This document shows positions 1,917 to 59,558 of a stretch of DNA of 64,000 bases, in pieces (position 1 is the stretch's first letter; each line of letters begins with the position of its first letter). The stretch is from NCBI GenBank assembly GCA_964638545.1, contig CAZXAM010000012.1, forward strand, positions 6,911-70,910, in the 5' to 3' direction. The position numbers and the translations under genes are program-made. Below the pieces are notes generated by a model that ran no database searches, was not told where the DNA came from, and saw nothing but the letters and a program-made list of their open reading frames with translations. Origin of the DNA: an uncultured Rikenellaceae bacterium. GTDB lineage: Bacteria; Bacteroidota; Bacteroidia; Bacteroidales; VadinHA17.

Positions 1917-3587
1917 ATGCTCGTAAAACTCTGCGTTCATAATTATGCGCTGATAAAGGATCTGGACGTTGAACTGGAGAACGGACTGACGATCATTACC
2001 GGGGAAACAGGCGCCGGCAAGACAATACTGTTGGGGGCGCTCTCGCTTATCCTCGGCAGCAGAGCAGACTCTTCAGTTCTCCTTGAGAAAGAGGAAAAAT
2101 GCGTGGTTGAAGGAACATTCAACATAGAAGGCTATGATCTCGAAGAGTTTTTTGTCGTAAATGAGCTTGATTATGAGACCGTCACAATTATGCGCAGGGA
2201 GATTAATCCTGCAGGTAAATCGAGGGCTTTTATAAATGATACACCGGTAACGGTTAATCTTCTGAAGGAACTGGGTGAACGCCTTATCGACATACATTCA
2301 CAGCATCAGACGCTGATGCTTCAGGGCAGTTCTTTCCAGCTGAAAGTAATAGATTCATTCGCAGGGAATGGAAAAACAGCTGATGAGTACAAAAATGTTT
2401 TCAGGAGATACCGCTCCCTGAAAAAAGAATATGATGATGCCAGGGAAAAGGCTGAGAAGAACCAGTCGGACCTTGAGTATTACAGTTTCCAACTGAGCCA
2501 GCTTGAAGAGGCAAAGCTTACTGAAGATGAACAGGAGAGACTTGAAAAGGAACAGGAGCTTCTGACTCATGCAGAAGAGATTAAGGTTGCCCTGGGAACA
2601 TCATCGGAGCTTTTATCATCTGAAACAGGCTCAATCCTGATCCGCCTTAAAGAAGTCAGACAAACCCTTACAAAAATAAAGGAGTTCCTGCCCGGTGACG
2701 GAGAAATTCTGAAGCGTACCGAATCGTCGTATATTGAAATAAATGATCTGGCCGGAGAAGTAGAAAAACTCGCCTCGTCAATAGATGCGGATCCCAAACG
2801 TCTGGCAACGGTGAACGAAAGGCTCGATGCCATCTATTCGCTCATGCAGAAACACCGGGTTACCAGTGTAAAAGATCTGATAGTTAAGCGGGAAGAAATC
2901 AAGAAAATAGTAAGGTCCATTGTTGGAAGCGATGAACGGCTTGCAGAGCTTGATTCACTTCTGAAGAAGGATATCGGACTGATGAAAAGACTTGCGGGAG
3001 ATATTTCCGCAAACAGAATGAGAGTGATCCCGGAAGTGGAGAAGAAGATAACAATGCTTCTTCAACAACTGGGAATGCCGAATGCAAAGTTCAGGATATG
3101 CCTTTCAGAATTACCAGATTTCACTCTCACAGGGACCGATCATGCCGATTTCCTTTTCTCCGCTAACAAGCAAATCGAACCTGAAAACCTGGCGAAGACT
3201 GCTTCAGGAGGCGAGCTTTCGAGGGTTATGCTCAGCCTTAAATCGCTTCTGGCAAAGAATATGAGCCTGCCAACAATTATTTTTGATGAGATAGACTCGG
3301 GAGTATCGGGGGAGGTTGCCGATAAGGTGGGACAAATCCTTTCAGGAATGGGAAAATATATGCAGGTGGTTAATATCACACACCTCCCGCAGGTCGCAGC
3401 CAGGGGGACAAAGCACTACCATGTTTATAAAGATGAGACAGGCAGCTCAACAATTACCCGGATAAAGTTGTTGTCTGCAAAAGAAAGGGTTGTTGAGGTT
3501 GCAAGACTGTTAAGCGGCAGTGAGATCACACCCATTGCCATTAAGAATGCGCAGGAACTGATAAAAACAGGCCAAAACCAGATTTGA
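1917..3587 (+). CDS. recN: DNA repair protein RecN
   Basis: 556 aa. N-terminal Walker A (GETGAGKT), long coiled-coil middle region, C-terminal SMC signature (ASGGELSRVMLSLK) and Walker B (IIFDEIDSG). Confidence 0.95.
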   Translation: MLVKLCVHNYALIKDLDVELENGLTIITGETGAGKTILLGALSLILGSRADSSVLLEKEEKCVVEGTFNIEGYDLEEFFVVNELDYETVTIMRREINPAGKSRAFINDTPVTVNLLKELGERLIDIHSQHQTLMLQGSSFQLKVIDSFAGNGKTADEYKNVFRRYRSLKKEYDDAREKAEKNQSDLEYYSFQLSQLEEAKLTEDEQERLEKEQELLTHAEEIKVALGTSSELLSSETGSILIRLKEVRQTLTKIKEFLPGDGEILKRTESSYIEINDLAGEVEKLASSIDADPKRLATVNERLDAIYSLMQKHRVTSVKDLIVKREEIKKIVRSIVGSDERLAELDSLLKKDIGLMKRLAGDISANRMRVIPEVEKKITMLLQQLGMPNAKFRICLSELPDFTLTGTDHADFLFSANKQIEPENLAKTASGGELSRVMLSLKSLLAKNMSLPTIIFDEIDSGVSGEVADKVGQILSGMGKYMQVVNITHLPQVAARGTKHYHVYKDETGSSTITRIKLLSAKERVVEVARLLSGSEITPIAIKNAQELIKTGQNQI

Positions 3588-5810: not shown

Positions 5811-7198
5811 AACAGGTAATTCAGTCCTATCGAAAATCCCAGCTTGTTGCTGTCCTGTGCCTTGAATGCTTTTCCGATATCAACTGCGACTACGAAGTTA
5901 CGGTTCATCACGAACATGATGCTTGTTCCTGCAGTATGGTGAATTGATTCAGCACCGGATTTGAAGAATTCCTCATATTCATATCCTTTAAGCTTACTGT
6001 CGAATGAACCTATTAATGCCGATGAAGAAGGCAGATCAATCTTATCCGTCACCATTCCGAAATCATAAAACAGATTCCATCCTAAATAGCAGTCGGCTTT
6101 TAGGAATCTGAAATATATTGGTTTCCAGCGCAGTTCGATATTTCCGTACAGGATGCCGTCGCCGATGACTCTGTTCCTAAGCACCCCCCTCAGTGAACTT
6201 GCACCTCCGAGGCCTTCATTGGTTGCACCAGTAAGATAAGATGTTATCAGCTGTGACTGATAGAAAAAGGGAACTTCTCCTCCAAGAAGTGTCTGATAAC
6301 CAATTCTGTATACAAATGAAAGATCATCTTTCACAAGAGTGAAGTACTGACGGTGAAGGATATAAAATTTTGTAAAAGCCCAGTCGTTGCCTATGAATCC
6401 AGGTGATGTTTCTATCCCCATTTCGGTCCAGATGCCTTTCATGGGATTCGGGCGGTTATCACGGCTGTCCCACATTATTCCGGCTTTTAACGTATTTACC
6501 CATCCTCCGTCGGCTTCATTATCGGAAATAAGGCCAAGGGAATCACGGTATATTTCGAAGAGTCCGGGCTGCTCTATAATTGATGGCAATCTTTTGTCAA
6601 CATCTTTACCTTCGTTAAGCTTTGCTATATCAACAGACCCGACAGAAAAATTATTTACTCCGAAACCGGCACTCCATTTCAGGTGGTCACCGTAAAGTTT
6701 GCCCTGTATATCTGCTTTTACCCTGAACTGGTTCCTTTCAAACCTGTAAAACATTCTTGATTTGTAAGTTGAAGCTTCATCATCCATCCAGTCTTTGTTG
6801 AAAATTGCATCATACCCGTTGAATCCGTAAAAATCATATGCTTTATCGGGCAAATAGCTGACATCAATCGAAAAATGGGTTTTACCGATCAGGTGATTCG
6901 ATTCATACATCATCCTGTAAATGCCGCTTCCCTTTGTAAAACGAGAAACTTCAGTGTAGGTATGATCGAGAAACTCAGGATAGATGCTTGGATTGCCATA
7001 ATTGAAGAATTCCACAAGAGCGCCATACTGGAATCCAAGGTTAGAGTCGTAAGTTGTTGCCGGGAGAGCTCCGCCGAATCTCCATCCCACCTTTTCTTTG
7101 GGCGGTTTTTTCTCCTTCTTTGCTTTCTTGGTTTCATCCTGACCATAAACGGAGATTGCAATAAACAAAATAAGAAAAACCGATAAAGCCTTTTTCAT
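5807..7198 (-). CDS. Outer-membrane beta-barrel protein (Omp85/BamA-TamA-like surface antigen family)
   Basis: Signal peptide MKKALSVFLILFIAISVYGQ, alternating beta-strand pattern, and a C-terminal aromatic residue (..GLNYLF). Confidence 0.55.
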   Translation of the reverse strand: MKKALSVFLILFIAISVYGQDETKKAKKEKKPPKEKVGWRFGGALPATTYDSNLGFQYGALVEFFNYGNPSIYPEFLDHTYTEVSRFTKGSGIYRMMYESNHLIGKTHFSIDVSYLPDKAYDFYGFNGYDAIFNKDWMDDEASTYKSRMFYRFERNQFRVKADIQGKLYGDHLKWSAGFGVNNFSVGSVDIAKLNEGKDVDKRLPSIIEQPGLFEIYRDSLGLISDNEADGGWVNTLKAGIMWDSRDNRPNPMKGIWTEMGIETSPGFIGNDWAFTKFYILHRQYFTLVKDDLSFVYRIGYQTLLGGEVPFFYQSQLITSYLTGATNEGLGGASSLRGVLRNRVIGDGILYGNIELRWKPIYFRFLKADCYLGWNLFYDFGMVTDKIDLPSSSALIGSFDSKLKGYEYEEFFKSGAESIHHTAGTSIMFVMNRNFVVAVDIGKAFKAQDSNKLGFSIGLNYLF

Positions 7199-7306: not shown

Positions 7307-8584
7307 ATGCGTTTACTTGTCAAAAATATAAAAGGTCTGATTCAGACTGAAGAGAAGACGCGGATTAAAGTCTGCGGTAAAGACATGGCAGTAATACGCA
7401 TGATATCAGATGCTTATCTTTTCCTGGAGAATGGTCTGATATCCGATTTCGGCGTTATGAAAGATCCGAAAATTAAATCCCTGGTTGGACAACCAGCCAC
7501 AATAAATGAAATTGATGCATCCGGGAAATTTGTCTTCCCTTCTTTCTGCGACTCGCATACTCACCTGGTGTATGCAGGCAGCCGTGAAACAGAATTTACC
7601 GACAAAATACGCGGGCTTTCATATGAAGAGATTGCAGAGAGGGGAGGAGGCATACTTAACTCAGCCAGGAAGCTTCATGATACAAGGGAAGATGATCTGT
7701 TTGAGCAGTCATCGGTGCGAGTCAGGGAAATAATCAGACAGGGTACGGGAGCTGTCGAGATTAAAAGTGGTTACGGCCTTAACCTTGATGATGAACTGAA
7801 AATGCTGAGGGTTATAAAAAGAATAAAGCAGAACTTCCCCGTCGAAATAAAATCAACATTTCTGGGAGCACATGCAGTGCCCCCTGAGTTTAAGGAAAAT
7901 AGAAAAAAATACGTCGACCTGGTTATCAATGAAATGATACCCGTCGTGGCTTCAGAGGAACTTGCAGATTATATTGACGTCTTCTGTGATAAAGGATTCT
8001 TTACGGTTGAGGATACTGAAAGAATTTTAATGGCGGGAATGAAATACGGGCTCCGGGCCAAGATCCATGCAAACGAACTGGACTTTTCAGGCGGAGTACA
8101 AACAGGTGTAAAATACAATGCTCTTTCGGTCGACCATCTTGAACGGTCAGGTGATTCTGAATTCAGAGCTCTTCTGGACTCTGATACCATGCCTACAATC
8201 CTTCCGGGCTCAGCTTTCTTCCTGGGGCTGCCTGATCCACCGGCAAGAAGAATGATAGATTCAGGCCTTCCGGTTGCAATGGCTTCCGATTATAATCCGG
8301 GTTCATCTCCTTCGGGGAACATGAAGCTTGTGATGTCGCTGGCATGCATCAGGTTGAAAATGCTTCCTGAAGAAGCGATAAATGCTGTTACTATCAACTC
8401 TGCGTATGCAATGGGAATATCAGAGACACATGGTTCAATTGCAAGAGGGAAGGTGGCTAATGTTTTCATTACTAAGGAAATGCCATCGTACGAGTTTTTT
8501 CCGTATGCTTTTGGCAGCGATCTGATTGAAACTGTAATTCTAAAAGGCAAAATACACCCCCCTGCCCCCCTGAAGGGGGGATAA
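7307..8584 (+). CDS. hutI: Imidazolonepropionase HutI
   Basis: 425 aa with amidohydrolase metal motifs (FCDSHTHLVYAG, KIHANEL, ASDYNPGSSP). The last 9 codons (HPPAPLKGG) and the stop are encoded by a repeat element. Confidence 0.9.
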   Translation: MRLLVKNIKGLIQTEEKTRIKVCGKDMAVIRMISDAYLFLENGLISDFGVMKDPKIKSLVGQPATINEIDASGKFVFPSFCDSHTHLVYAGSRETEFTDKIRGLSYEEIAERGGGILNSARKLHDTREDDLFEQSSVRVREIIRQGTGAVEIKSGYGLNLDDELKMLRVIKRIKQNFPVEIKSTFLGAHAVPPEFKENRKKYVDLVINEMIPVVASEELADYIDVFCDKGFFTVEDTERILMAGMKYGLRAKIHANELDFSGGVQTGVKYNALSVDHLERSGDSEFRALLDSDTMPTILPGSAFFLGLPDPPARRMIDSGLPVAMASDYNPGSSPSGNMKLVMSLACIRLKMLPEEAINAVTINSAYAMGISETHGSIARGKVANVFITKEMPSYEFFPYAFGSDLIETVILKGKIHPPAPLKGG

Positions 8585-8641
8585 ATTCAGAACAGATTTA
8601 AGCCCCCTTTAGGGGGCAGTCCCGAGTACTCGGGACGGGGG
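8557..8641 (+). repeat. GC-clamp multi-hairpin element, copy A
   Basis: C6-TGAA-G6 (8565-8580), ATAAATTCAG, C5-TTTA-G5 (8603-8616), CCCGAGTACTCGGG (8621-8634) and G5 (8637-8641). Confidence 0.85.
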
Positions 8642-10332: not shown

Positions 10333-10345
10333 TAAACGGAATAAT

Positions 10346-10380
10346 CGCCCCCTCGCCTTTTCGCCCCCTCTCCCCCTCAC
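10346..10380 (-). repeat. G5-tract element (G-rich on the minus strand) directly after the NlpC/P60 stop codon
   Basis: The minus strand reads GTGAGGGGGAGAGGGGGCGAAAAGGCGAGGGGGCG. It shares GAGGGGGAGAG and GGGGGCGAAA with 17533-17565. Confidence 0.6.
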
Positions 10381-16554: not shown

Positions 16555-17523
16555 ATGAAAAATAAATTAGCCGTGGTTGCCCTTGGGGGAAATGCACTGC
16601 TCAGAGGCGATCAGGTGGGAACCATAGATGAGCAGGAGCAAAACACGACTGACACACTTGAGAACCTTATCTTCCTTATTGAAGAGGGTTATGACCTTGT
16701 GATAACACACGGCAACGGTCCTCAGGTTGGCAATATCCTCATGCGAAATGATGCAGGTGAGCAGATATACAACATTGCACAGATGCCTGTGGATATTTGT
16801 GTCGCTGATTCGCAGGGCGGGATAGGCTATATGATCGAAAGAATGTTCCGTAATGTCTTGCATAAACACAACATCGACAAAAACGTTGTCTGCCTGGTAA
16901 CATCTGTAATTGTTGATATCAACGATCCTGCATTCAGCGATCCCCAGAAAAGGATAGGCAAAATTTATTCCAGGGAACAGGCTGATGAACTGGCCCTTAA
17001 AAAGGGATGGATCTTCAGGGAGGAAGTTAAAAATGACGGCGGCTTCAGAAGAGTTGTCCCTTCGCCCCTGCCAAAGGATATCATAAACTGGTCGATCATC
17101 AGTGACCTCTCGCGAAAGGGTAATATCGTAATCGCTGCGGGAGGAGGTGGTATACCGGTGTATTTCGATGAAAAGAAAGATGTGAGACCTGCCGAAGCGG
17201 TCATTGACAAGGATATGGCATCTTCCCTCCTGGCCACGCTTATTGGCGCGGATGAATTCTATATCCTTACCGATGTGCCTTATATATATGTCAACTATAA
17301 GAAACCCAACCAGGAGATCAGGGAATTCCTGAACTATTCAGATGCTCTTAAGCTCCTTAATCAGGGAGAGTTCGCAAAAGGTAGCATGGCTCCCAAAATA
17401 CAGGCATGCCTGAACTTTATCAGGCAGGGAGGCAGTATAAGTGTTATAACTGAAGCTTTTAAGCTGGCTGATAAGAAATATGGGTCCAAGATCACTATGG
17501 AATATGAGGATGACAGACGATAG
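16555..17523 (+). CDS. arcC: Carbamate kinase
   Basis: 322 aa. VVALGGNALL...THGNGPQVGN is the carbamate kinase signature. Confidence 0.9.
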   Translation: MKNKLAVVALGGNALLRGDQVGTIDEQEQNTTDTLENLIFLIEEGYDLVITHGNGPQVGNILMRNDAGEQIYNIAQMPVDICVADSQGGIGYMIERMFRNVLHKHNIDKNVVCLVTSVIVDINDPAFSDPQKRIGKIYSREQADELALKKGWIFREEVKNDGGFRRVVPSPLPKDIINWSIISDLSRKGNIVIAAGGGGIPVYFDEKKDVRPAEAVIDKDMASSLLATLIGADEFYILTDVPYIYVNYKKPNQEIREFLNYSDALKLLNQGEFAKGSMAPKIQACLNFIRQGGSISVITEAFKLADKKYGSKITMEYEDDRR

Positions 17524-17532
17524 GCTGAAGAA

Positions 17533-17565
17533 GGGAGGGGGAGAGAGCGGGAGGGGGCGAAAGGG
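17533..17565 (+). other. Canonical G-quadruplex-forming motif in the arcC-argF intergenic region
   Basis: GGGaGGGGGagagagcGGGaGGGGGcgaaaGGG: five G-tracts of 3 or more with loops of 1, 7, 1 and 5 nt, on the sense strand 10 nt after the arcC stop. Confidence 0.5.
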
Positions 17566-17566
17566 A

Positions 17567-17612
17567 GATGCAACTGTGCAACTCCGCGAGACTCCGTGTC
17601 ATCCGTGGTTAA
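17567..17612. repeat. Degenerate ~10-nt-phased CYGYG array (diverged relative of the CTCTGTG arm)
   Basis: caaCTGTGcaactCCGCGagactCCGTGtcatCCGTGgttaaaaag. Confidence 0.4.
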
Positions 17613-20766: not shown

Positions 20767-21207
20767 ATGCTAATTAGAAAAAGTCTGGCAATTATCCTGA
20801 CATTGACAATCATCAGTGCAGCAGCCTGCAATAAAGGGAACAAACATGGAAATGCCTCATCGGATAGTCATTCTTCAGATACAGGCAAAGCTGTTATTAC
20901 TTTCGCGTCACTCGACCATGATTTTGGCAGGGTAACCGAGGGAGAGAAAGTGGGGTGTATCTTCACTTTCACTAATACAGGCACCTCTGACCTTATTGTT
21001 ACCAACGCCACAACAAGCTGCGGATGCACTGTGCCTAAGTATGACAAAACCCCGATTGCCCCGGGCTCACATGGATCTATCGAGGTTGTTTTCGATACAG
21101 GAGGCCGTAATGGAATCCAGACCAAATCAATCACGATTCTCTCAAATGCAGCTGCCCCTGTAGTGCTTCTTCAAATAAAGGCTGAAGTAATACCAAAAGA
21201 GAAATAA
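20767..21207 (+). CDS. DUF1573 domain-containing protein
   Basis: 146 aa with a lipoprotein signal. FDFGRVTEGEKV...FTFTNTGTSDLIV...SCGCTVP is the DUF1573 signature. Confidence 0.7.
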   Translation: MLIRKSLAIILTLTIISAAACNKGNKHGNASSDSHSSDTGKAVITFASLDHDFGRVTEGEKVGCIFTFTNTGTSDLIVTNATTSCGCTVPKYDKTPIAPGSHGSIEVVFDTGGRNGIQTKSITILSNAAAPVVLLQIKAEVIPKEK

Positions 21208-21245: not shown

Positions 21246-21315
21246 CCAGCAACCAATAACCAGCAACCAGCAACCAGCAACCAGCAACCAGCAACCAGCA
21301 ACCAGCAACCAGTAA
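21246..21315. repeat. Heptanucleotide tandem repeat (CCAGCAA / AACCAGC), 10 units
   Basis: Seven perfect consecutive units at 21260-21308. These are flanked by CCAGCAA (21246), CCAATAA (21253) and CCAGTAA (21309). An isolated copy sits at 21208-21214, directly after the DUF1573 stop. Confidence 0.95.
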
Positions 21316-21344
21316 CAAATAAATAATAACCAAACTCAATTACG

Positions 21345-21686
21345 ATGACCCATTTAGCTTTCTTATTACTCCAGACACAGCCGGCAAGGACCGGCGCTTC
21401 GCAGGGCGGAAACATGACCGTGAGCTTTCTTATGCTTCTGGCTGTATTCGTTGTATTCTATTTCTTCTTCATAAGGCCTCAGATGAAGAAGCAGAAAGAA
21501 ATGACCAATTACAGGAGTTCTCTTAAAAAAGGTGATAAAGTTGTCACCAATGGAGGTATCTATGGCAGGATCCTGGAAGTCAAGGATAATTTTGTGATGA
21601 TGGATGTTGGAGGCGACATAAAGCTCAAAGTCGACAAGAGCGCACTTATGAAGGACCCAACAGCTGAGGAAACGGCAAAAGCATAA
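21345..21686 (+). CDS. yajC: Preprotein translocase subunit YajC
   Basis: 113 aa. TM helix followed by FFFIRPQMKKQKE..LKKGDKVVTNGGIYG. Confidence 0.85.
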   Translation: MTHLAFLLLQTQPARTGASQGGNMTVSFLMLLAVFVVFYFFFIRPQMKKQKEMTNYRSSLKKGDKVVTNGGIYGRILEVKDNFVMMDVGGDIKLKVDKSALMKDPTAEETAKA

Positions 21687-25019: not shown

Positions 25020-25020
25020 C

Positions 25021-25099
25021 CCCCAAACCCCCTGAAGGGGGCCTGGTTTGTGGCTGAATTTATACCCCCTTCAGGGGGTCGCCGCGCAGCGGCGGGGGG
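25021..25099 (-). repeat. GC-clamp multi-hairpin element, copy B (inverted relative to copy A)
   Basis: C5-TGAA-G5 (25028-25041), CTGAATTTAT, C5-TTCA-G5 (25065-25078), CGCCGCgcaGCGGCG (25080-25094) and a G-run. The reverse complement aligns with copy A. Confidence 0.85.
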
Positions 25100-25881
25100 T
25101 CTAGTTTCTTCGCCTCTTCCCATATCACATTCATCTCATCGAGACTCATGCTGTGGAGCGACCTTCCCTTTTTCATGGTCTCATTTTCGAGGTAATTGAA
25201 TCTCTTTATGAATTTTCTGTTGGTTTTTTCCAGGGCTGCTTCAGGGTCGATCCCATAGAGCCGGGAAGCATTGATAAGTGAAAAAAATACATCCCCAAGT
25301 TCCGACTCCATTTCCTCAATGTTATGATCATCAATTTCCTTTTTCAGTTCTCCGATCTCCTCCAGAACCTTATCCCATATCTGTTCACGCTTTTCCCAGT
25401 CAAATCCTACACCTCTGACTTTTTCCTGTAATCTGTTAGCCTTGACAATGGCAGGCAGTGTTGAAGGAACTCCTGACAGAACCGGCTTATAGCCATTATT
25501 CTCTTTGATCTTGAGATGTTCCCAGTTTCTTTCAACCTCGGAGGCGCCTGAAACTTTTACGTCGCTGAAAACATGCGGGTGCCTGTAAACAAGCTTTTCA
25601 TTGATACCTTTAAGGACATCGGTCATGTTGAATATGTTTTTTTCCGAACCGATCTTTGAATAAAAAACAATATGAAGCATAAGGTCTCCGAGCTCATTTT
25701 TTATCCCTTCGTCATTGCCTGAAAATATTGCTTCAGCAAGTTCATAAGTCTCCTCGATCGTCAACTTCCGCAGGCTCTCATTTGTCTGTTTCTTGTCCCA
25801 TGGACATGTTTCCCTGAGCTTATCCATTAATTCCAGGAGTTTCACAAACTCCGCTGCACTTCTTTCCTTATCATTCATCAT
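25060..25881 (-). CDS. mazG: Nucleoside triphosphate pyrophosphohydrolase MazG
   Basis: 273 aa with tandem MazG domains (EETYELAEAI..ELGDLMLHIVF; EEIGELKKEI..ELGDVFFSLIN). The last 14 codons (LDPPPLRGDPLKGV) come from a repeat element. Confidence 0.9.
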   Translation of the reverse strand: MMNDKERSAAEFVKLLELMDKLRETCPWDKKQTNESLRKLTIEETYELAEAIFSGNDEGIKNELGDLMLHIVFYSKIGSEKNIFNMTDVLKGINEKLVYRHPHVFSDVKVSGASEVERNWEHLKIKENNGYKPVLSGVPSTLPAIVKANRLQEKVRGVGFDWEKREQIWDKVLEEIGELKKEIDDHNIEEMESELGDVFFSLINASRLYGIDPEAALEKTNRKFIKRFNYLENETMKKGRSLHSMSLDEMNVIWEEAKKLDPPPLRGDPLKGV

Positions 25882-45698: not shown

Positions 45699-46118
45699 TT
45701 AATTTATGGATCTGTAATTGACAGGGAGTATCCCGTCGACATACTCGCCGTTCTTGACGTATTTCTCAATAATCTCGTCAGCTTTCAGCTTGTCGACATT
45801 ACCGAAAACGACTGGTTCCTGCCCCGGGCGTTTTACTTCGATGGTAGGTTCTGCATAGCTGTACCCCAAGTCTCCTGTTCCGATAACATCAGCGTCGATG
45901 TTCCTTTTTTCGAATTCCGTCTTAATGAAATCATGTATTCCCTTTGCACCCGATGCAAGTCCGCTTGTTCCCATATGAACTCTGACACGGATCTTTTCGG
46001 TACCGTAGATCCGCTTCAGGGCTTCAGCTTTTAATTTCTTTAGATCTTCATGTGATTTAATTACTTTCATATTCACTTGATTTACAAGTTTATAATGAGA
46101 ATGGTTCGATAAATTCAT
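45699..46118 (-). CDS. Cysteine-free thioredoxin-like-ferredoxin-fold protein; first gene of the hyd operon (HydD-like?)
   Basis: 139 aa. Aligns to the Trx-like 2Fe-2S domain at the HydB N-terminus, but all four Cys positions are replaced. The start may be M17 (46070). Confidence 0.6.
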   Translation of the reverse strand: MNLSNHSHYKLVNQVNMKVIKSHEDLKKLKAEALKRIYGTEKIRVRVHMGTSGLASGAKGIHDFIKTEFEKRNIDADVIGTGDLGYSYAEPTIEVKRPGQEPVVFGNVDKLKADEIIEKYVKNGEYVDGILPVNYRSIN

Positions 46119-46147: not shown

Positions 46148-46182
46148 TTGTTAATAAAATAACAATGTTAATAAAATAACAA
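46148..46182. promoter_or_regulatory. Two tandem 18-bp Rex-like palindromic boxes (TTGTTAATAAAATAACAA, aTGTTAATAAAATAACAA)
   Basis: A perfect 17-bp direct duplication (46150-46166 = 46167-46183). Each copy matches TTGTTAA-N4-TTAACAA with 1-2 mismatches. It lies just upstream of the -7 box of the hyd operon. Confidence 0.45.
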
Positions 46183-46462
46183 TATTTTAAAATTGTTCTA
46201 AATAAGAAGCATTTAGCATTAAAAAGATGCTTTTGTGTTATCAATGGAACAAGTCAATCTTTATGCTCTCTAATTTACAAAATCAATTATTGCCTTAAGG
46301 TAAAAACCTATTTTATCTTGACACCTGCAAGTGAAATAATTAGGATGAAAACTTTTTCAGGATCTTTCACACAAAGAATGTAATACATTTCATCTGCCGC
46401 GAATCCACTGCTTTTATACAATGTCTTCGCTGAAATCAAATGTGTTTATGTTTTAAAAACCT

Positions 46463-46470
46463 TATTTTTG
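46463..46470 (+). promoter_or_regulatory. Candidate -7 promoter box (TATTTTTG) for the S9 peptidase gene
   Basis: Exact TAnnTTTG match 45 nt upstream of ATG 46515. It lies inside the track's longer ORF (46440), which argues for the shorter start. Confidence 0.45.
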
Positions 46471-46514
46471 TTACCCAATCTGAATACTGTAATTATATGA
46501 TCAATGCTATACCT

Positions 46515-48680
46515 ATGAAAAAGACCAGCCTGCAGATAAGCTTGTTAATACTGTTAACAATACTCACTACAGAAAATTCCGGGATCTTCGCTCAAAGGCC
46601 GATGCGTGGTACCGACCAGGCAGCAATTATCGGCTGGACAGATGATACACATTATTTAATGCGTAAACCTGATGACGACAAGAAAATGGTGACTATGAGT
46701 GTAGACATCAGGAGTGGCGTGAGCAAGTTAGTTCCGCCTTCAAAGTCAGAGCGCGAACTGCTGCTTGAATCACTTCCTGCCGGAGTGACAATTGGAATGA
46801 ATGACATTATCAGTCCCGATATGAAAAGCGCAGTCATCTTAAAGGATAATGACCTGTGGCTATACACAAAAGGGGACAAAGAGATTAAGAGGCTTACAAC
46901 CGATGATAAGCAGGAAGTGAATGTCCGTTTTTCGCCTGAAGGAAAAAAGCTGGCATATACAAAAAACAGGGACTTATATGTATATGATATTCAGGCTGGC
47001 AAAGAACTGAGGCTTACAACCGATGCTTCAGAAAATGTTTATAACGGCTACGCCGCATGGGTATATTATGAGGAGATTCTCGGAAGGCCCAGCCGCTATG
47101 CTGCTTTCTGGTGGTCCCCCGACGGAAACAGGCTGGCTTATCTGAGGTTTGACGAAACTGAGGTGCCTGTATTCACTCTTAACCGTCTCGATGAACCCGA
47201 CGGAGTTCACGGGATCCTTGAGGTGGTACATTATCCGAAACCTGGAGATCCGAATCCAAAGGTGAAAATGGGAATTGCAGATATAGCCTCCGGGAAAACG
47301 ACCTGGGTGAAGACTGATTACTCAATAGATCAGTACATTGCATGGCCTTTCTGGACACCCGACAGCAAAAAGCTTGCTATACAGGTTCTTAACCGTGATC
47401 AGAACAATCTTAAAATCATTCTCGCCGATCCATTTACAGGAGATTTCAGCCAGATATATGAAGAGTCGTGGAAGACATGGATCGAGTTCCATGAGGATAT
47501 CTGGGTTATGAAGAACAACAGTGGTTTTATCATCAGAAGCTATAAGAATGGATGGGAAAATCTTTATTACATAAGCTGGGATGGGCGTCAGATAGCACAG
47601 CTGACCAACCTGGCTTTCAGAGTCACATCCATTGACAGGGTTGATGAGGATATGAAAATGGTATACTTCACTGCTACGGGCTCCGAATCAACTGACAGCC
47701 ATGCTTTCCGTGTCGGTCTCGACGGGAAGAACCTCCTTCAGCTTACAAACGGAAACGGGACACATAGTGTTAACATTTCGCCAAAAGGAAGCTACTATAT
47801 CGATACCTGGAACAGTATTTCAAGCACGGGCTCGATAATTGCATATGACCGGAAAGCCAGGATGCTTAAGGAAATTCATAAATTCGAACAGCTGGACTTC
47901 AATCCTGCAGAAAATGCAAAATCTGAATTTGTAAAGATCAAAACCTCTGATGGATTGTTCGATATGCCGGCAATAATAACATACCCTGTCAATTTCGATC
48001 CTTCAAAGAAATATCCGGTAATTTTCAACATCTATGGAGGTCCGGATTCAAAAAACATCTCCAACCGGTGGCAGGGAACCAATGCTTCATGGTATTCACA
48101 GAACGGTATAATAACCTTTGCAGTCGATCACAGGGGATCAGGACAGTTCGGGAAGAGAGGACTTGACTATCTGCACCGTTCACTCGGTAAATGGGAGGTG
48201 CTTGATTATGAGGATGCAGTTAAATGGCTGAGAACTAAATCGTATGTCGACCCTGCAAGGGTTGGGATCACGGGAACCTCTTACGGGGGATATATGACTT
48301 GCATGGCTCTGACTAAAGGCGCAGATTACTGGACCCACGGATTTGCAGGATCATCTGTGACTGACTGGAGACTCTATGATGATGTTTATACCGAAAGATA
48401 TATGGACACGCCCCTGGAAAATCCTGAAGGATACAGGGAAGGATCAGCCCTGACGTTTGTTGCGGGTTACAAAGGCAAGCTATACCTCAATCATGGCGAT
48501 ATGGATGATAACGTCCATATGCAGAACTCGATCTATCTTATCTCGAAGCTTCAGGATGCGGGTAAAACATTCAGCTTCATGATTTACCCCGGAGGCAGGC
48601 ATGGATGGGGAGGAGCCAAATCGTTACACTCACGAAATGAGGCAAATATGTTCTGGATGGAAAGCTTTTTCGGGAAATGA
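46515..48680 (+). CDS. S9 family serine peptidase, dipeptidyl-peptidase IV-like
   Basis: Signal peptide MKKTSLQISLLILLTILT, a DPP-IV N-terminal beta-propeller, and the catalytic motifs GTSYGGY, D..DDNVH and GGRHGW. Confidence 0.85.
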   Translation: MKKTSLQISLLILLTILTTENSGIFAQRPMRGTDQAAIIGWTDDTHYLMRKPDDDKKMVTMSVDIRSGVSKLVPPSKSERELLLESLPAGVTIGMNDIISPDMKSAVILKDNDLWLYTKGDKEIKRLTTDDKQEVNVRFSPEGKKLAYTKNRDLYVYDIQAGKELRLTTDASENVYNGYAAWVYYEEILGRPSRYAAFWWSPDGNRLAYLRFDETEVPVFTLNRLDEPDGVHGILEVVHYPKPGDPNPKVKMGIADIASGKTTWVKTDYSIDQYIAWPFWTPDSKKLAIQVLNRDQNNLKIILADPFTGDFSQIYEESWKTWIEFHEDIWVMKNNSGFIIRSYKNGWENLYYISWDGRQIAQLTNLAFRVTSIDRVDEDMKMVYFTATGSESTDSHAFRVGLDGKNLLQLTNGNGTHSVNISPKGSYYIDTWNSISSTGSIIAYDRKARMLKEIHKFEQLDFNPAENAKSEFVKIKTSDGLFDMPAIITYPVNFDPSKKYPVIFNIYGGPDSKNISNRWQGTNASWYSQNGIITFAVDHRGSGQFGKRGLDYLHRSLGKWEVLDYEDAVKWLRTKSYVDPARVGITGTSYGGYMTCMALTKGADYWTHGFAGSSVTDWRLYDDVYTERYMDTPLENPEGYREGSALTFVAGYKGKLYLNHGDMDDNVHMQNSIYLISKLQDAGKTFSFMIYPGGRHGWGGAKSLHSRNEANMFWMESFFGK

Positions 48681-53449: not shown

Positions 53450-53455
53450 TTCTTT

Positions 53456-53560
53456 ATCTCTGTGTCTCTCTGTGATCCTCTGTGTCTCTCTGTGTAAGTT
53501 CTTGAAACCATTTTATTTCACAGAGGAAATCCGGAGAAGCACTGAGTTACACAGAGAAAG
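53456..53560. repeat. 10-nt-phased CTCTGTG/CACAGAG inverted-repeat element, copy E1 (pyrimidine arm first)
   Basis: CTCTGTG occurs at 53458, 53468, 53478 and 53488. The array ends in CTCTGTGTAAGTTCTT (53488-53503). A purine arm CACAGAGGAAATCCGGAGAAGCACTGAG..TTACACAGAG follows (53516-53556). Confidence 0.85.
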
Positions 53561-53562
53561 AA

Positions 53563-55620
53563 TTACCTTATAACATTCTCAATCAATGTAACATCAATTA
53601 CCGGGAACTCTGTTATTCTGAGTTTTGCACTGCCATACGGAACAAGCTGAACGATTTCGGTGCTGCCCTCCGGCTTAACCGGGCTCCTTGGAGGCAGGTC
53701 AGCGGAATTATCTTTAATGGTCCATCCCGGTATCTTCATGCCACGTACATTTATTATTACCGGTGCATCCTTTTGCCAGGAGAAATATGATCCTGATCGT
53801 TCCGACCATACCATATCCCCTTTATCGGCATACGGGTAATCAGTTATGCTGTTTTCGATAACCTCTATACCTCTTTGCTTCTTCACAGGATCTATCAGCA
53901 ATCCGTAATTCCAGGGACTTGCCGGCTCTATCTCCCAGTCAACGCTGCCCTTATAGCTGAAGTTGTCGTAGCTAAGCTTCACGCTTTTATAATTCTTATT
54001 GATCCTTAAGGAGAAAGTCAATGGTCCGCGGAGTATTGAAACAGAATTATTGAAACGTCTCTCGAATCTCAGGTTTAAAGGTATCCTGAAAGTAATCAGA
54101 TCACCGTTTTCCCACTTCTCAGCCAGCCTTATGGTCTGTCCGGCAGTTCCGCTAAATGTCCTGCCTTTGAAATTAAATGACACAGAATCTGCCCATTGCG
54201 GCACTCTGAGGTAGATCGGAAATCTAACAGGTTCCGCTGTGGTGATCTTTAGTTTAACAAATCCCTTGAAAGGATATTCAGTTTCCTCGCTTATTGTCAC
54301 TTCAGCGCCATTCGCAACTTTGGCTGTCACTCTGCAGGGACTATATGCCACAGCAGCTAGTCCGTTATCGTTGGTTGCCATCCACAAGCTTGCTGCAAAT
54401 TTTGGCCAGCCCTGGTGCATGTTTGCAAGGCAGCATGCAAAATTCGGCATAAGGCCGTATATATTTGACTGGTTTCCGTTGCTCGCCCAGTTCCTTTTCT
54501 GATCTGTGACAAGAACCTGGTTAGACTGCTGGTCGTACTGATGCGCCCACATATCTGGCGTTTCTGTTCCGGGCAATGCGTTGAATACAAGCATTTCAAG
54601 CCTGTCGGCAAAGGAGTTGTCACCAAATATGGCATAGAGTTCTTCGAGCGAGAACATCTCTTCGACAATAGTGCAGAGCTCGGTTCCTCTGTCGGGACTT
54701 TTACCTGAAAGATGTTCATCGCAGGAGAAGCGTCCTGCTGCCTGTCCGTGATAGCGGTCGTACTTTTGAAGAGATGACACTACAGCATTCTTATATCGTA
54801 TATCACCTGACTGCTGGTACCATAATCCGGGATATTTTATAGCCATTCCATTGTTCACTCCATGCGCCGTCAGGCCTTTCCAGGTCTCGGTTGGAATTCT
54901 CTTCTCAGCAAGTGCGGCTGAATCCCACGGAAATTTCTCAAAGTGTGTTGTCCAGTCGAATGAATTTTTTTGTATTGATTCAATAGCTTCAAGGATCCAT
55001 ATTTCCTTGGTCTGTCTGTAGAGCCAGTACCCGGTGACTGCGTTCTCCATTGCCCTGACACCCCTCCATTGGTTATCGGGCCAGTCGGGGCTTACATCGT
55101 GAATATATTTGAAATACTTTTTCAGGACATCCAGGGCACGTGGGTCAGAAGTGGCTTCGTAGTACTGCATAAGAGCTTTATTAGAAACTGCGAGCGGCCA
55201 TCTGTCGGTATTCTTCAGAGGACCGTACCACCCTGAATCCCTGCTGCTGGCCATTATAGGTTCGATCCAGGTTTTTACTTTTTCCTTCAGTCGCTCTTCA
55301 TCAAGAAGGTATGCAAGGGGAACAAGACCATCAAGGAAATATGGACCTCTTTCCCATGCATCTCCGGTCCCCCCTTTCCATGCTGAATTCTTAAGGTCCG
55401 GCCAGAAATCATCAACGTGGCCGGTAAGGCCCTCAGCCTGGACTATGAGCTGGTCCTTGAGCCAGCCTTCAGGTTTTACCGCTCCAAGAGGCAGTTTTAT
55501 GTATGCATTCTGCAGAAGAGGCTCAGGATTGCCTTTGTAGTTTTTATTTTCTTTTCTGCCGGTACAACCAAAAACGACAATTATAATTGACGAAGCGAGT
55601 ATTATAAATATTTTCTTCAT
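53563..55620 (-). CDS. GH127/GH146-like glycoside hydrolase (beta-L-arabinofuranosidase-like, DUF1680 family)
   Basis: 685 aa, lipoprotein signal (VVFGC). GPYFLDGLVPLAY, ELCTIVEEM and FACCLANMHQGWPKF resemble GH127-clan motifs. Confidence 0.7.
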   Translation of the reverse strand: MKKIFIILASSIIIVVFGCTGRKENKNYKGNPEPLLQNAYIKLPLGAVKPEGWLKDQLIVQAEGLTGHVDDFWPDLKNSAWKGGTGDAWERGPYFLDGLVPLAYLLDEERLKEKVKTWIEPIMASSRDSGWYGPLKNTDRWPLAVSNKALMQYYEATSDPRALDVLKKYFKYIHDVSPDWPDNQWRGVRAMENAVTGYWLYRQTKEIWILEAIESIQKNSFDWTTHFEKFPWDSAALAEKRIPTETWKGLTAHGVNNGMAIKYPGLWYQQSGDIRYKNAVVSSLQKYDRYHGQAAGRFSCDEHLSGKSPDRGTELCTIVEEMFSLEELYAIFGDNSFADRLEMLVFNALPGTETPDMWAHQYDQQSNQVLVTDQKRNWASNGNQSNIYGLMPNFACCLANMHQGWPKFAASLWMATNDNGLAAVAYSPCRVTAKVANGAEVTISEETEYPFKGFVKLKITTAEPVRFPIYLRVPQWADSVSFNFKGRTFSGTAGQTIRLAEKWENGDLITFRIPLNLRFERRFNNSVSILRGPLTFSLRINKNYKSVKLSYDNFSYKGSVDWEIEPASPWNYGLLIDPVKKQRGIEVIENSITDYPYADKGDMVWSERSGSYFSWQKDAPVIINVRGMKIPGWTIKDNSADLPPRSPVKPEGSTEIVQLVPYGSAKLRITEFPVIDVTLIENVIR

Positions 55621-55654: not shown

Positions 55655-55802
55655 TTACACAGAGGAAGCCCGGAGTCCCGATAGCTATCGGGACACTGAG
55701 ATCCACTGAGAAAATCTCCGAGTCACTCTGTGCTTCCTCTGTTTAATTCTGTGTAACTCTGTGTAATTCTGTGTAACTCTGTGTAACTCTGTGTAAGTTC
55801 TT
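55655..55802. repeat. 10-nt-phased inverted-repeat element, copy E2 (most complete)
   Basis: Left arm TTACACAGAGGAAGC. An 11-bp perfect stem (55659-55669 pairs with 55732-55742). A perfect 18-nt palindrome TCCCGATAGCTATCGGGA (55676-55693). Six 10-bp tandem units YTCTGTKTAA (55737-55796). Terminal CTCTGTGTAAGTTCTT (55787-55802). Confidence 0.9.
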
Positions 55803-57837
55803 AAAATTCAATATTTGGTATTTCCGGATTTTTGCTTCTGAATATATCAGCACTTTCGACTGCCTGGAGCATATCGAACCAGGCTACACCCGCTGAAGGC
55901 ATCTGTAAGATAACATTTGTTCGCGGAGGCTGGTCGTTGTAATATGGAATTGTAACATTTGTTACATATTCTTTCCATGCTCCGGTAAGTTCGAAACGGG
56001 TTACCGCATAATCGCCAAGGGCTATTTCAAAGAACTGCTTCTTTTCCTCATTCCCGTTTTTCAAACCTTGCTCCGGATCGGCTTTGGCCCAGACCGATAT
56101 ATAATATGATCCGCCATTTCTTCCGTTAAACGGAAAAAACCTCAGCCTGATACTTTTATTTTCAGAAGGTGTTACAAGCCTGACCGAATGGTTTCCCTCA
56201 AAATGTTCCCTGGAATCAAGAAAATAGGTCGCACCCCTGTCGCCTCCTCCGCGGGCATAACATGACGCAGGTACTCCGGGACTCGAGACATCCTCAAATC
56301 CTGGATCCTTTATGAGATTTCTTGTCCATTGCTTCACTGTAACATTCTCTTTCTTCAGCCTGATAAGGTAGGCCTGAGAACCAAATGCCTGGAGATAATC
56401 TGAGAAGTCTCTGCCGTCGGGATTCACCCACCGGTTTTCGAAAAGTACTTTTACCCTTCCGGAGAATGGACTACCGACAGAAAAATCAACTCTTTGCGGA
56501 GAATTAGTTTTATTTACAGCAACAATCAAAAGCTGTCCGTCATGAAGGGCAGATGATACAATTATATTCTGATTTCCCGACCGGACAGGAACGGTCTCTT
56601 CATCGGACAGAAGCCAGGGAGTCATCTCGGCTATCTCCGACGACATTCTTCCGCATTCAGCCCAGGCTGAAGTTGATTTTGGAAATAGGTTAAGTCCCTG
56701 TCTGACAAAATACTGTATTCCCCTGGCTCCTTTTACAATTGATTGGTACGTCATTGACCTGAGCTCCTGGAGCGTCGGTTCCCTTCCCCACCATTCACCT
56801 CCGCCAAAAGCCTGGGGAACTATCCAGACAGGTTTTTTGCCGGTAAATTCGGCTGAGAGTTTGCCGGCAGCATCACCGACCATAGATATGGGGCTGTCAG
56901 GAACAGGGTAGGGGTCAGCCATCACAATATCAAGTGCTTCTGCATAGAGGCGCGACGACATGAAGGGAGCCATGAAAACAACTGTAACAGGGTGCCATGG
57001 ATCAAGTTCCCTGACTAGTTTGTAGATTTCCTGGAGCGAGTCAGGTTTTATCTTATATCCGTTAGGTTCATCTGCGATATACCATGCAAGAAGTGCGGGA
57101 TGGTCCATGAAAGCATTTATCTCCTCCCGGAGAAGCTTTTTCTTCCTCGATTCAGAAAGACCTTCTATAGTAGAGCTTACACCGCCGCCGCCGGAAACTG
57201 AAAGCAGATTGTAATGGACTTTCATTCCGAGCCGGGCGCACCTGTCCATATATGCTTTCCGCGCATTAAAAGTCTCAGGCAATACCCTCTGGTAGGGCGA
57301 TATCATGTTAAAGCCTTTTACAACTTCTTCTTCGGGGAGAGAAGGATGAACCGGTGAGTAAGTATAGAATCCGAAAGGGAAGAATTGTCTTTTGTTAACG
57401 ATAAGTCCTCCCGTGAGCCGGTCGGTTTTAACCTCGTTTGGCTTATAGCTTAGAATCCGCAGGTTGGTTTTTGCCGTGTACTTTAAATTTCCTCCCTCGA
57501 CATTAATATTTGCAATTAATATATATTCAGAAGGCTGCAGATTGAGTGCGATGGGGATCCTTGCTATTTTCTTTCCAGGAACTCCGGTCCATGAACCTAT
57601 AACCTCTCCATTATTTTCAATCTTGACAGATAATTTGCTGTAGAAAAGATCTTGCGGAACAATCAAAAGAACTTCTCCTGTGGATTCAAAGGAATAGAAG
57701 CTATAACGCGTATTTATCGAAAAAGACTTAGAATCAACGGATTGAGGCAATGCACTTTGTTCAGCCACAAGAAGAGTCAATAAAGCAAAGGCTAAAAATT
57801 TAATCCTTCTCTCTATATCCATTATTATTTTAGCCAT
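55801..57837 (-). CDS. Secreted hypothetical protein, putative TIM-barrel glycoside hydrolase with a C-terminal carbohydrate-binding-like domain
   Basis: 678 aa with a signal peptide. The central LLAWYIADEPNG motif resembles a clan GH-A acid/base region. The C-terminal ~170 aa is jelly-roll-like (DPGFED...GNHSVRL). Family not recognised. Confidence 0.4.
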   Translation of the reverse strand: MAKIIMDIERRIKFLAFALLTLLVAEQSALPQSVDSKSFSINTRYSFYSFESTGEVLLIVPQDLFYSKLSVKIENNGEVIGSWTGVPGKKIARIPIALNLQPSEYILIANINVEGGNLKYTAKTNLRILSYKPNEVKTDRLTGGLIVNKRQFFPFGFYTYSPVHPSLPEEEVVKGFNMISPYQRVLPETFNARKAYMDRCARLGMKVHYNLLSVSGGGGVSSTIEGLSESRKKKLLREEINAFMDHPALLAWYIADEPNGYKIKPDSLQEIYKLVRELDPWHPVTVVFMAPFMSSRLYAEALDIVMADPYPVPDSPISMVGDAAGKLSAEFTGKKPVWIVPQAFGGGEWWGREPTLQELRSMTYQSIVKGARGIQYFVRQGLNLFPKSTSAWAECGRMSSEIAEMTPWLLSDEETVPVRSGNQNIIVSSALHDGQLLIVAVNKTNSPQRVDFSVGSPFSGRVKVLFENRWVNPDGRDFSDYLQAFGSQAYLIRLKKENVTVKQWTRNLIKDPGFEDVSSPGVPASCYARGGGDRGATYFLDSREHFEGNHSVRLVTPSENKSIRLRFFPFNGRNGGSYYISVWAKADPEQGLKNGNEEKKQFFEIALGDYAVTRFELTGAWKEYVTNVTIPYYNDQPPRTNVILQMPSAGVAWFDMLQAVESADIFRSKNPEIPNIEF

Positions 57838-59472: not shown

Positions 59473-59558
59473 TTACACAGAGGAAATCCAGAGAAGCGCA
59501 GAGAAAAAAACTCTGTGGAACTCTGTGCCTTCTCTGTGTCACTCTGTGTAAGTTCTTC
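59473..59558. repeat. 10-nt-phased inverted-repeat element, copy E3
   Basis: TTACACAGAGGAAATCCAGAGAAGCGCAGAG, an A7 loop, then CTCTGTG at 59511, 59521, 59532 and 59543, ending in CTCTGTGTAAGTTCTT (59543-59558). Confidence 0.9.

Follow-up and report, generated by a model that had tools for sequence, protein, structure and literature searches.

We analysed a 64,000-nt stretch of DNA (the window) from an uncultured Rikenellaceae bacterium (GTDB lineage Bacteria; Bacteroidota; Bacteroidia; Bacteroidales; VadinHA17; GenBank assembly GCA_964638545.1, contig CAZXAM010000012.1, positions 6,911 to 70,910 of the forward strand). The analysis concerns E2, an inverted repeat at 55655-55802 between two minus-strand genes, and its two relatives in the window, E1 and E3. 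The three elements belong to a dispersed, non-coding, extragenic repeat family of uncultured environmental Bacteroidales, whose arms consist of phased CTCTGTG heptamers. E2 and the genes on either side of it are laid out as follows.

53563-55620, minus strand: gene downstream of E2, encoding a GH127-like protein
55655-55664: left arm, outermost unit TTACACAGAG, that is, TTA plus the heptamer CACAGAG
55665-55675: left arm, 11-nt variant unit GAAGCCCGGAG
55676-55693: nested GC palindrome TCCCGATAGCTATCGGGA in a spacer position of the left arm
55694-55710: left arm, two inner units, CACTGAG-ATC-CACTGAG
55711-55715: apex or loop AAAAT between the arms
55716-55736: right arm, inner units CTCCGAG and CTCTGTG with a CTTC spacer
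55737-55796: right arm, six near-perfect 10-bp tandem units (CTCTGTTTAA, TTCTGTGTAA, CTCTGTGTAA and so on)
55797-55802: GTTCTT tag, its last two bases within the stop codon of the open reading frame (ORF) 55801-57837
55801-57837, minus strand: gene upstream of E2, encoding a 678-aa glycoside-hydrolase-like protein that has no Pfam match of its own and whose homologues carry PF02449 / PF02018

A first-pass annotation had described E2 by its left arm, an 11-bp stem, a palindrome, tandem units, a terminal 16-mer and an overlap with a stop codon, and all of these are present. By inspection, TTACACAGAGGAAGC begins at 55655, and TTACACAGAG at 55655-55664 is an exact complement to each of the CTCTGTGTAA units at 55757, 55777 and 55787. 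The exact 11-bp pairing of 55659-55669 (ACAGAGGAAGC) with 55732-55742 belongs to a 22-nt, 86% inverted repeat (55655-55676 / 55725-55746). The perfect 18-nt palindrome, TCCCGATAGCTATCGGGA, was located at 55676-55693 and is palindromic over 20 nt. Tandem Repeats Finder (TRF) reported a period-10 array of 7.1 copies at 55725-55796. The element closes with the 16-mer CTCTGTGTAAGTTCTT at 55787-55802, the end of which overlaps two bases of the minus-strand stop codon 55801-55803; an overlap of the TAA/TAG-containing tag with the stop was also found in the E2 orthologues of two relatives (L125 and L126; fetched loci are denoted by L and a number). The view that E2 is the most complete copy could not be maintained. 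E2 is an atypical copy in two ways, namely the nested palindrome and a right arm grown to eight cores, six of which make the 10-bp tandem. The family norm is four units per arm (exactly four in 137 of 173 arms), as in the orthologous E2 copy of L125. We attribute the six tandem units to expansion of the terminal CTCTGTGTAA unit by replication slippage rather than to the design of the family. The 11-nt variant unit has the family form GAAATCCGGAG, which E1 and E3 carry too. The TCCCGATAGCTATCGGGA module was also found within CTCTGTG arms of L039, L082, L092, L095, L098 and L106, with variants in L033, L107 and L121, and GC palindromes such as TCCCGATAGCTATCGGGA and CCTGCCTGCCGGCAGGCAGG are nested in arms of many genomes.

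The other two copies in the window have the following parts.

E1, 53450-53562: permuted copy occupying the entire gap between two convergent stop codons, with right arm 53458-53497, tag 53498-53503, loop 53504-53515 and left arm 53516-53556
E3, 59473-59557: copy in a divergent promoter region, 18 nt upstream of the start codon of an extracytoplasmic function (ECF) sigma gene (59454), with left arm 59473-59503, loop 59504-59510, right arm 59511-59551 and tag 59552-59557

E1 separates a plus-strand M24 peptidase gene from the minus-strand GH127-like gene, E2 stands between two co-directional genes, and E3 lies between the divergent ECF sigma gene and a vWA/YfbK gene, so that the three together cover convergent, co-directional and divergent junctions. 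Homologues of the proteins encoded next to E1-E3 carry the labels of Bacteroidales or Bacteroidia metagenome-assembled genomes (MAGs). TRF detected period-10 arrays in E1 (53457-53495) and E3 (59510-59549) as well. The 16-mer is common to E1, E2 and E3, giving three occurrences in the window where 0.03 is expected; in E3 it occupies 59542-59557, one base to the left of the position first annotated (59543-59558). It had been taken as an identical terminus of all three elements, which holds for E2 and E3; in E1 it is central, the order being right arm, loop, left arm. Within the 64 kb, three or more phased heptamers occur only at E1, E2 and E3, and such arrays were obtained in 0 of 20 shuffles. 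An arm profile built from other genomes also matches only these three elements in the window, the right arms giving E values of 2e-14 to 6e-9. E2 and E3 were recovered base-identical in two independent short-read assemblies from two samples and are therefore no assembly artefact. The contigs of those assemblies end within the arrays, as multi-copy DNA would lead one to expect. The left arms of E1, E2 and E3 are 83-85% identical, spacers included, and a TTACACAGAG-GAAATCCGGAG-AAG-CAC.GAG pattern is common to E1, E3, L044, L104 and L114. The common spacers and variant-unit patterns indicate that the copies derive from each other and are not of local origin.

When the exact 16-mer was scanned in one representative genome per species, it was found in at least 119 stretches, nearly all from Bacteroidales MAGs of soil, fen and lake projects, some of them labelled Rikenellaceae. 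Every match context that was inspected showed the same arm structure around the 16-mer. Family statistics were taken from 173 arms in 897 kb of fetched loci, which form about 115 element clusters. The first-pass annotation had left room for a few local copies without conservation in relatives, and a large dispersed family was found instead. Each arm is a series of CTCTGTG heptamers, and their spacing, counted from the TAA end, is 10-11-10 (48 arms), 10-10-10 (30) or 9-11-10 (18), which places one heptamer on each helical turn. The sequence logo past the last heptamer reads T-A-A, then C (54%) or G, and then A/T-rich sequence. The GTTCTT tag follows only one arm of each pair. Among 130 sites there were 51 inverted pairs with the tag inside (E1 type), which enclose an A/T-rich loop, 26 with the tag outside (E2/E3 type) and 53 apparently solo arms; no direct (same-orientation) pair was present. 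By a strict test, 20 of 114 arms (~18%) were solo, without a complementary heptamer within 110-220 nt. The loops are variable and A/T-rich, most often 9 nt long where they follow GTTCTT, so a loop of the integration host factor (IHF) kind, or one otherwise conserved, was ruled out.

Several observations were made beside the family itself. Solo CTCTGTG arms often adjoin unrelated short-unit tandem arrays (L004, L006, L010, L035, L048, L076 and L093), such as (AAATCCGA)n, (CTCAGGGCGAAGAG)n, (GCAGTCTT / GCGGTCAT)n and (CGGTTTA / CGGCATG)n, and many short-period array families appear to combine into mosaics in these genomes. A BLAST search with E1 found no match in plasmids or phages, to which the low-complexity filter may contribute. 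In viral contigs, all 28 of 28 16-mer matches were lone and at chance level, without arrays, and a few true arrays of 3-4 units have other tails. The Candidatus Acidoferrales chromosome OY969770.1 (L022, GC 57%) carries three four-unit CTCTGTG arrays with a 9-bp period within 8 kb (3461-3495, 6300-6333 and 7464-7498). These end in CTCTGTGTAAG, each has a GC hairpin GGGTGCCCCACCCTT...AAGGGTGGGC and pyrimidine-rich sequence ahead of it, and all run along the direction of the flanking genes. Such look-alikes in Acidobacteriota hint at a heptamer module beyond one phylum.

The clustering of three copies within 6.1 kb around a glycan-degradation and ECF sigma-TonB gene cluster, with none elsewhere in the 64 kb, and the position of E3 18 nt upstream of the sigma gene start would suit a locus-specific operator array or small-RNA gene controlling the neighbouring glycoside hydrolase and ECF sigma genes. 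The distribution of the family largely refutes this explanation, which we regard as very improbable. The 130 flanking ORFs fall into 181 unrelated Pfam families, including adk, obg, ribosomal protein L19, pgk and aconitase, and show no recurrent neighbour gene and no transposase, Y1 included. Where neighbours seemed to cluster, the clusters consisted of Gfo/Idh/MocA oxidoreductases, saccharopine dehydrogenases and orthologous housekeeping genes. In close relatives, E2 or E3 is missing from the corresponding junction while the gene cluster is intact, as set out below. No sigma-70-type promoter site was detected at E1-E3, and by eye no Bacteroidetes TAnnTTTG box was seen in E2 or E3. Rfam 15 gave no match at the gathering score in the 64 kb; a permissive scan returned only sub-threshold miRNA-precursor models with E values of about 1 or above, which reflect a generic hairpin shape.

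Four syntenic loci, L123-L126, were fetched via homologues of the 678-aa protein (84, 79, 77 and 73% identity). The three sites are occupied there as follows.

E2 site: L123, a different periodic element (CTCTAGG core); L124, empty, the genes 2 bp apart; L125, a CTCTGTG element; L126, a CTCTGTG element
E3 site: L123, an element with CTTTGCG cores; L124, empty; L125, empty; L126, filled
E1 site: L123, other GC palindromes; L124, the same architecture with all units CTTTGTG / CACAAAG; L125, the locus stops short of the site; L126, a near-identical copy

At the junctions of L123 equivalent to those of E2 and E3, the periodic elements with other cores (CTCTAGGCA; CTTTGCG / CGCAAAG) are accompanied by GC hairpins. 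Filled, empty or otherwise occupied sites recur in further orthologous pairs among the genome loci. These comparisons between relatives show presence/absence polymorphism at orthologous sites; a target-site duplication would be indistinguishable there from the palindromic termini. The cores of subfamilies, for example CTTTGTG / CACAAAG, change on both arms together. At the adk-obg junction an element is present in four species whose adk third codon positions are only 51-65% identical, indicating that copies can be old. In six orthologous comparisons, 306 of 315 heptamer positions (97%) were identical, as against 41 of 83 spacer positions (49%). This difference indicates that the heptamers are under constraint at single loci, and the spacers change at about the rate of synonymous sites. 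In two orthologous pairs (L024 vs L026; L032 vs L033/L037/L107), the whole element is inverted between related species, its GTTCTT tag and loop being flipped with it, which suggests recombination between the inverted arms.

The position of the arrays relative to genes follows a clear pattern. No true array lies inside an ORF in the 897 kb of loci. Where both neighbouring genes were called, 29 sites are convergent, 52 co-directional and 9 divergent; the shares among all gene junctions of these loci are 17% convergent, 71% co-directional and 12% divergent. The elements are therefore enriched between convergent genes. Arrays often start 2-8 nt past a stop codon. Of 117 flanking stop codons, 29 have an array no more than 8 nt away, the commonest distance being 3-4 nt, the length of one spacer; for start codons, the distance has a median of 105 nt. 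A stop overlap like that of E2 (T-TAA-GAAC-TTACACAGAG) was found in L028, L125 and the window. Since the two genes flanking E2 are only 2 bp apart in L124, E2 lies inside an operon junction, and expression of the GH127 gene thus probably needs transcription through E2. From this arrangement, a modulating effect of E2 on the downstream GH127 expression appears plausible. The inside-tag elements of L066, L079 and L080, and partly that of L082, are enclosed by an outer stem of terminator-like type, GAGGCTGTCTCAAAA...TTTGAGACAGCCTC, with T-rich sequence after it, and look as if they had been inserted into the loop of an intrinsic terminator. Insertion into terminator loops as a general rule was rejected, as only 3-4 loci show it and the outer flanks are in general not complementary.

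The paired arms, if transcribed, could form a long interrupted 3' hairpin acting as a terminator, an attenuator, an exonuclease barrier or a processing site. E1-E3 indeed fold far better than shuffled sequences on both strands (-34 to -46 kcal/mol, z from -2.8 to -5.5). The start of arrays a few nucleotides from stops, the enrichment between convergent genes and the copies within terminator-like outer stems agree with such an RNA-level role. E2 and the adk-obg copy are inside operon junctions and must be transcribed through, and the maintained 3x3 internal loops might shield a long duplex from RNase III. The strong folding is not decisive, because any inverted repeat gives it. No terminator-like hairpin followed by a T-run is present at E1-E3, where the sequence past the arms is A-rich or mixed; an intrinsic terminator was therefore ruled out there, as no U-tract follows a GC hairpin. 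At least 18% of the arms have no partner, and solo arms are unable to fold. The 16-mer runs along co-directional flanking genes 30 times and against them 22 times, and arrays abutting a stop begin with CTCTGTG 30 times and with CACAGAG 18 times, indicating that neither orientation is preferred with respect to transcription. Transitions on the sense strand at co-directional junctions are as often wobble-compatible as wobble-incompatible (13 vs 13). A variant heptamer in one arm has no compensating change in the other, as in E2, where CACTGAG is paired with CTCTGTG; outer flanks are generally not complementary, and Rfam holds no match. Taken together, an RNA-level function as the basis of the family seems distinctly unlikely. 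The attenuator, processing site or small RNA (sRNA) between co-directional genes that the first-pass annotation had considered for this locus is likewise disfavoured by the occurrence of the family at all junction types and in both orientations, by the solo arms, by spacers that avoid pairing (see below), by the even transition counts and by the lack of a terminator tail. Its suggestion that spurious hypothetical proteins rich in TQR/HRE/LCV peptides derive from relatives of the repeat found no support in a single search, in which a 45-aa translation across an element had no homologue among 5.8 billion proteins.

An alternative at the DNA level is that the elements resemble MITEs (miniature inverted-repeat transposable elements), the arms being the ends of a parent transposon with several phased transposase sites each, of the inverted repeat/direct repeat (IR/DR) Tc1-like or the Tn7/Mu type, and TA or TTA/TAA being the target duplication. 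The terminal inverted repeats of E2 and E3 (TTACACAGAG / CTCTGTGTAA) are perfect over 10-11 bp, and E1-type and solo copies do not have them. Orthologous sites are filled or empty, short-read contigs break within the arrays as multi-copy DNA would, and the logo shows terminal heptamers flanked by T-TA ... TA-A. However, the supposed termini face each other in the middle of the element in the commoner form (51 vs 26), and strict solo arms exist too. No parent element or transposase gene was found beside any of the ~115 copies in the fetched loci, the filled/empty junctions gave no unambiguous duplication, and old orthologous copies keep their heptamers with decayed spacers, which is unexpected for dead MITEs. 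We therefore consider a MITE-like origin unlikely.

The array of protein-binding sites on one face of the duplex, phased by the helical turn, which had been the other suggestion of the first-pass annotation, fits these data best: the spacing is 10-11-10 with four units per arm, the heptamers are conserved with drifting spacers, and there is no strand or orientation signal. Because four heptamers lie on one face of the helix, the arms form inverted pairs and the cores change on both arms together, an arm pair is interpreted as a docking platform with multiple sites. We thus consider it somewhat probable that E2 is a copy of a dispersed family acting at the DNA level, with the phased heptamers as predicted docking sites and with a behaviour like that of repetitive extragenic palindromic (REP) sequences and bacterial interspersed mosaic elements (BIMEs). 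We infer both that a protein reads the heptamers on DNA and that the family spreads by copying. A sequence-specific DNA-binding protein would dock on the heptamers, and may be either a transposase-like factor responsible for the spread of the family or a chromosomal protein now making use of it. The family would colonise the space between genes and persist there, especially directly behind stop codons. Effects on the neighbouring genes, such as 3' end protection or a partial block of read-through in operons such as that of E2, would be secondary.

Several results weigh against this interpretation. No HUH/Y1 motif of the kind found in REP-associated tyrosine transposases (RAYTs) was detected as a cognate protein in the six-frame translation of ~1 Mb, a sample in which a single-copy factor is not expected. 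Copies per genome can be bounded only roughly, between tens and perhaps a hundred. At the E2 and E3 sites and at L071/L080, neither a target-site duplication nor a clean boundary could be made out, a duplication of TA or TTA/TAA being indistinguishable from the palindromic termini in filled/empty comparisons; for this reason, it is only from presence and absence that mobility is deduced. The conservation of heptamers at individual loci argues for a host function. Furthermore, the spacers of paired arms show Watson-Crick complementarity at 13%, compared with 30 ± 5% at random (0 of 2000 shuffles as low), while the cores pair at 95% (n = 30 pairs). The values come from a single-spacer test, because an ungapped 45-nt version was confounded by 10/11-nt register shifts. 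Non-pairing spacers and the lack of direct pairs indicate that a folded, single-stranded or cruciform state matters, in RNA or in DNA. Long perfect palindromes are unstable in DNA, and the folded state is either to be avoided or to be used in interrupted form.

A broader version of the docking interpretation, which we hold as possible but doubtful, is that the heptamers are maintained cis sites of a hitherto undescribed, genome-wide Bacteroidales system in which a dedicated protein coats four helical turns at about a hundred gene ends per genome. Candidates for this reader are a domesticated transposase, a factor of the nucleoid or of domain boundaries, and a roadblock to transcription. The lineage-specific core variants (CTTTGTG, CTTTGCG, CTCCGTG...GTGGTTAA) would then co-evolve with the reader protein, and the four-unit look-alikes in Acidobacteriota would point to a spread beyond one phylum.

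The first-pass annotation had recognised no described element class; none was found in Rfam, and the literature that we searched contains no description of phased CTCTGTG arrays and no class that fits. A small dispersed intergenic repeat is of a well-known kind, whereas the architecture and the conservation pattern are not described. The family resembles REP, BIME and REPIN sequences in being short, non-coding, dispersed and strictly extragenic, with a location at 3' ends and between convergent genes. Singletons and inverted dimers with the tag outside or inside, mosaics with other small motifs, lineage-specific variants and persistence at orthologous sites are further likenesses; REP dimers occur head-head and tail-tail (PMC3733652), and REP elements persist for long times (PMC3116915). 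In contrast, a REP unit is a palindrome of 20-40 bp, whereas a CTCTGTG arm consists of four heptamers in direct array and by itself is unable to fold, and the REP tag at the foot of the hairpin is GT[AG]G or CGTC (PMC3733652, PMC6006769), compared with TAA(G/C) in the present family. Beside the RAYTs of Bacteroidetes (subclass 2.6), the REPs take the form of short GC hairpins (PMC6006769) and resemble only the nested GC palindromes of the CTCTGTG family, not the arrays. Unlike the REPIN-RAYT system, no RAYT was found for this family in ~1 Mb and 130 flanking ORFs, where a single-copy gene is not expected.

Bacterial MITEs include Correia/NEMIS, RUP and ERIC. Likenesses to MITEs are the terminal inverted repeats of the E2/E3 form, the size of 85-150 bp, the presence/absence polymorphism and the hairpin-forming transcripts. 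The BrickBuilt MITE of Porphyromonas gingivalis, also a member of the Bacteroidales, is reported to enclose a minisatellite (PMC4596501) and shares internal tandem units of variable number. The CTCTGTG family differs from MITEs in that neither a target duplication nor a parent insertion sequence was found in the fetched loci, permuted and solo forms outnumber the MITE-like form, old copies stay intact, and the repeated unit is a binding-site-like heptamer rather than filler between unique inverted repeats. The structure of BOX elements is also modular (boxA-boxB(n)-boxC), and we know of no report of permuted or solo forms. This repeat family of Streptococcus pneumoniae (PMC3049150) shares with ours a modular intergenic nature, a variable number of internal modules, a predicted stable structure and a location between operon genes; its modules, however, measure 45-59 bp compared with units of 10 bp here, and lack helical phasing of a short core.

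The short tandemly repeated repetitive sequences (STRR) of cyanobacteria are contiguous heptamer repeats. Arrays of the TAACTGA heptamer occur in Beggiatoaceae, Cyanobacteria and some Bacteroidetes (PMC4679880), and, like the present family, have a conserved heptamer in tandem at many intergenic sites and were proposed as protein-binding sites. They differ in being arranged head-to-tail without a spacer, at a period of 7 nt, mostly a short way upstream of starts and in one orientation, while the CTCTGTG family has a 10-11 bp period, inverted arm pairs and a position close to stop codons. A CRISPR (clustered regularly interspaced short palindromic repeat) array, with repeats of 24-48 bp and unique spacers of similar length, was ruled out by the 7-nt cores, the spacers of 2-4 nt and the four units per arm.

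The source genome is rich in repeat modules of this sort, and the window contains several others. A mosaic element at 17524-17612, directly after the stop of ORF 16555-17523, combines a G-rich periodic block GGGAGGGGGAGAGAGCGGGAGGGGGCGAAAGGGAG with an array ...CTGTG / CTCCGCG / CTCCGTG / ATCCGTG ending in GTGGTTAA. The CTCTGTG arm profile gives no significant match to it; its GTGGTTAA tail is the mark of a second subfamily of arms, with further examples in L003, L014, L053, L073, L106, L108 and L124. The intergenic C-rich periodic block ATCGCCCCCTCGCCTTTTCGCCCCCTCTCCCCCTC at 10344-10378 is the reverse complement of the G-rich block (inverse copy 17535-17569), and CTCCC-type arrays of this kind flank a CTCTGTG element in L043. 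Chains made up of small GC hairpins (CCCCCCTGAAGGGGGG, GCCCCCTTTAGGGGGC, GTCCCGAGTACTCGGGAC, CGCCGCGCAGCGGCG) occur at 8556-8640 and 25020-25100; their TCCCGA...TCGGGA hairpin is of the module type of the palindrome nested in E2, and related chains were found in L004, L021, L030 and L087. At 21246-21316, ten contiguous CCAGCAA units lie between the co-directional ORFs 20767-21207 and 21345-21686, forming a head-to-tail array of the TAACTGA/STRR kind whose sequence is unrelated to E2. A perfect 17-bp direct repeat TGTTAATAAAATAACAA present twice (46149-46183) and a 25-bp repeat of 2.2 copies (46030-46084) lie in or beside the divergent region between ORFs 45699-46118 (minus) and 46440-48680 (plus), and look like an operator rather than a dispersed repeat.

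For genome analysis, the family accounts for the breaking of contigs when these abundant Bacteroidales of soil and wetland are assembled from short reads, and it is a repeat sequence that gene callers and RNA-motif scans should flag. The class of element is ordinary; its signature is unusual and testable, in that the heptamers are conserved while the spacers are free and mutually non-pairing. The near-perfect heptamers, compared with the near-neutral 3-nt spacers at inherited sites, suggest that each copy is still read by something. The same contrast offers a way to identify the reader, either by pull-down or through correlation of core variants with protein families. Should the reader be a chromosomal protein and not a transposase, the family would represent a REP-like system in which phased direct sites take the place of the tagged hairpin, and would add it to a phylum from which little is known of such systems.

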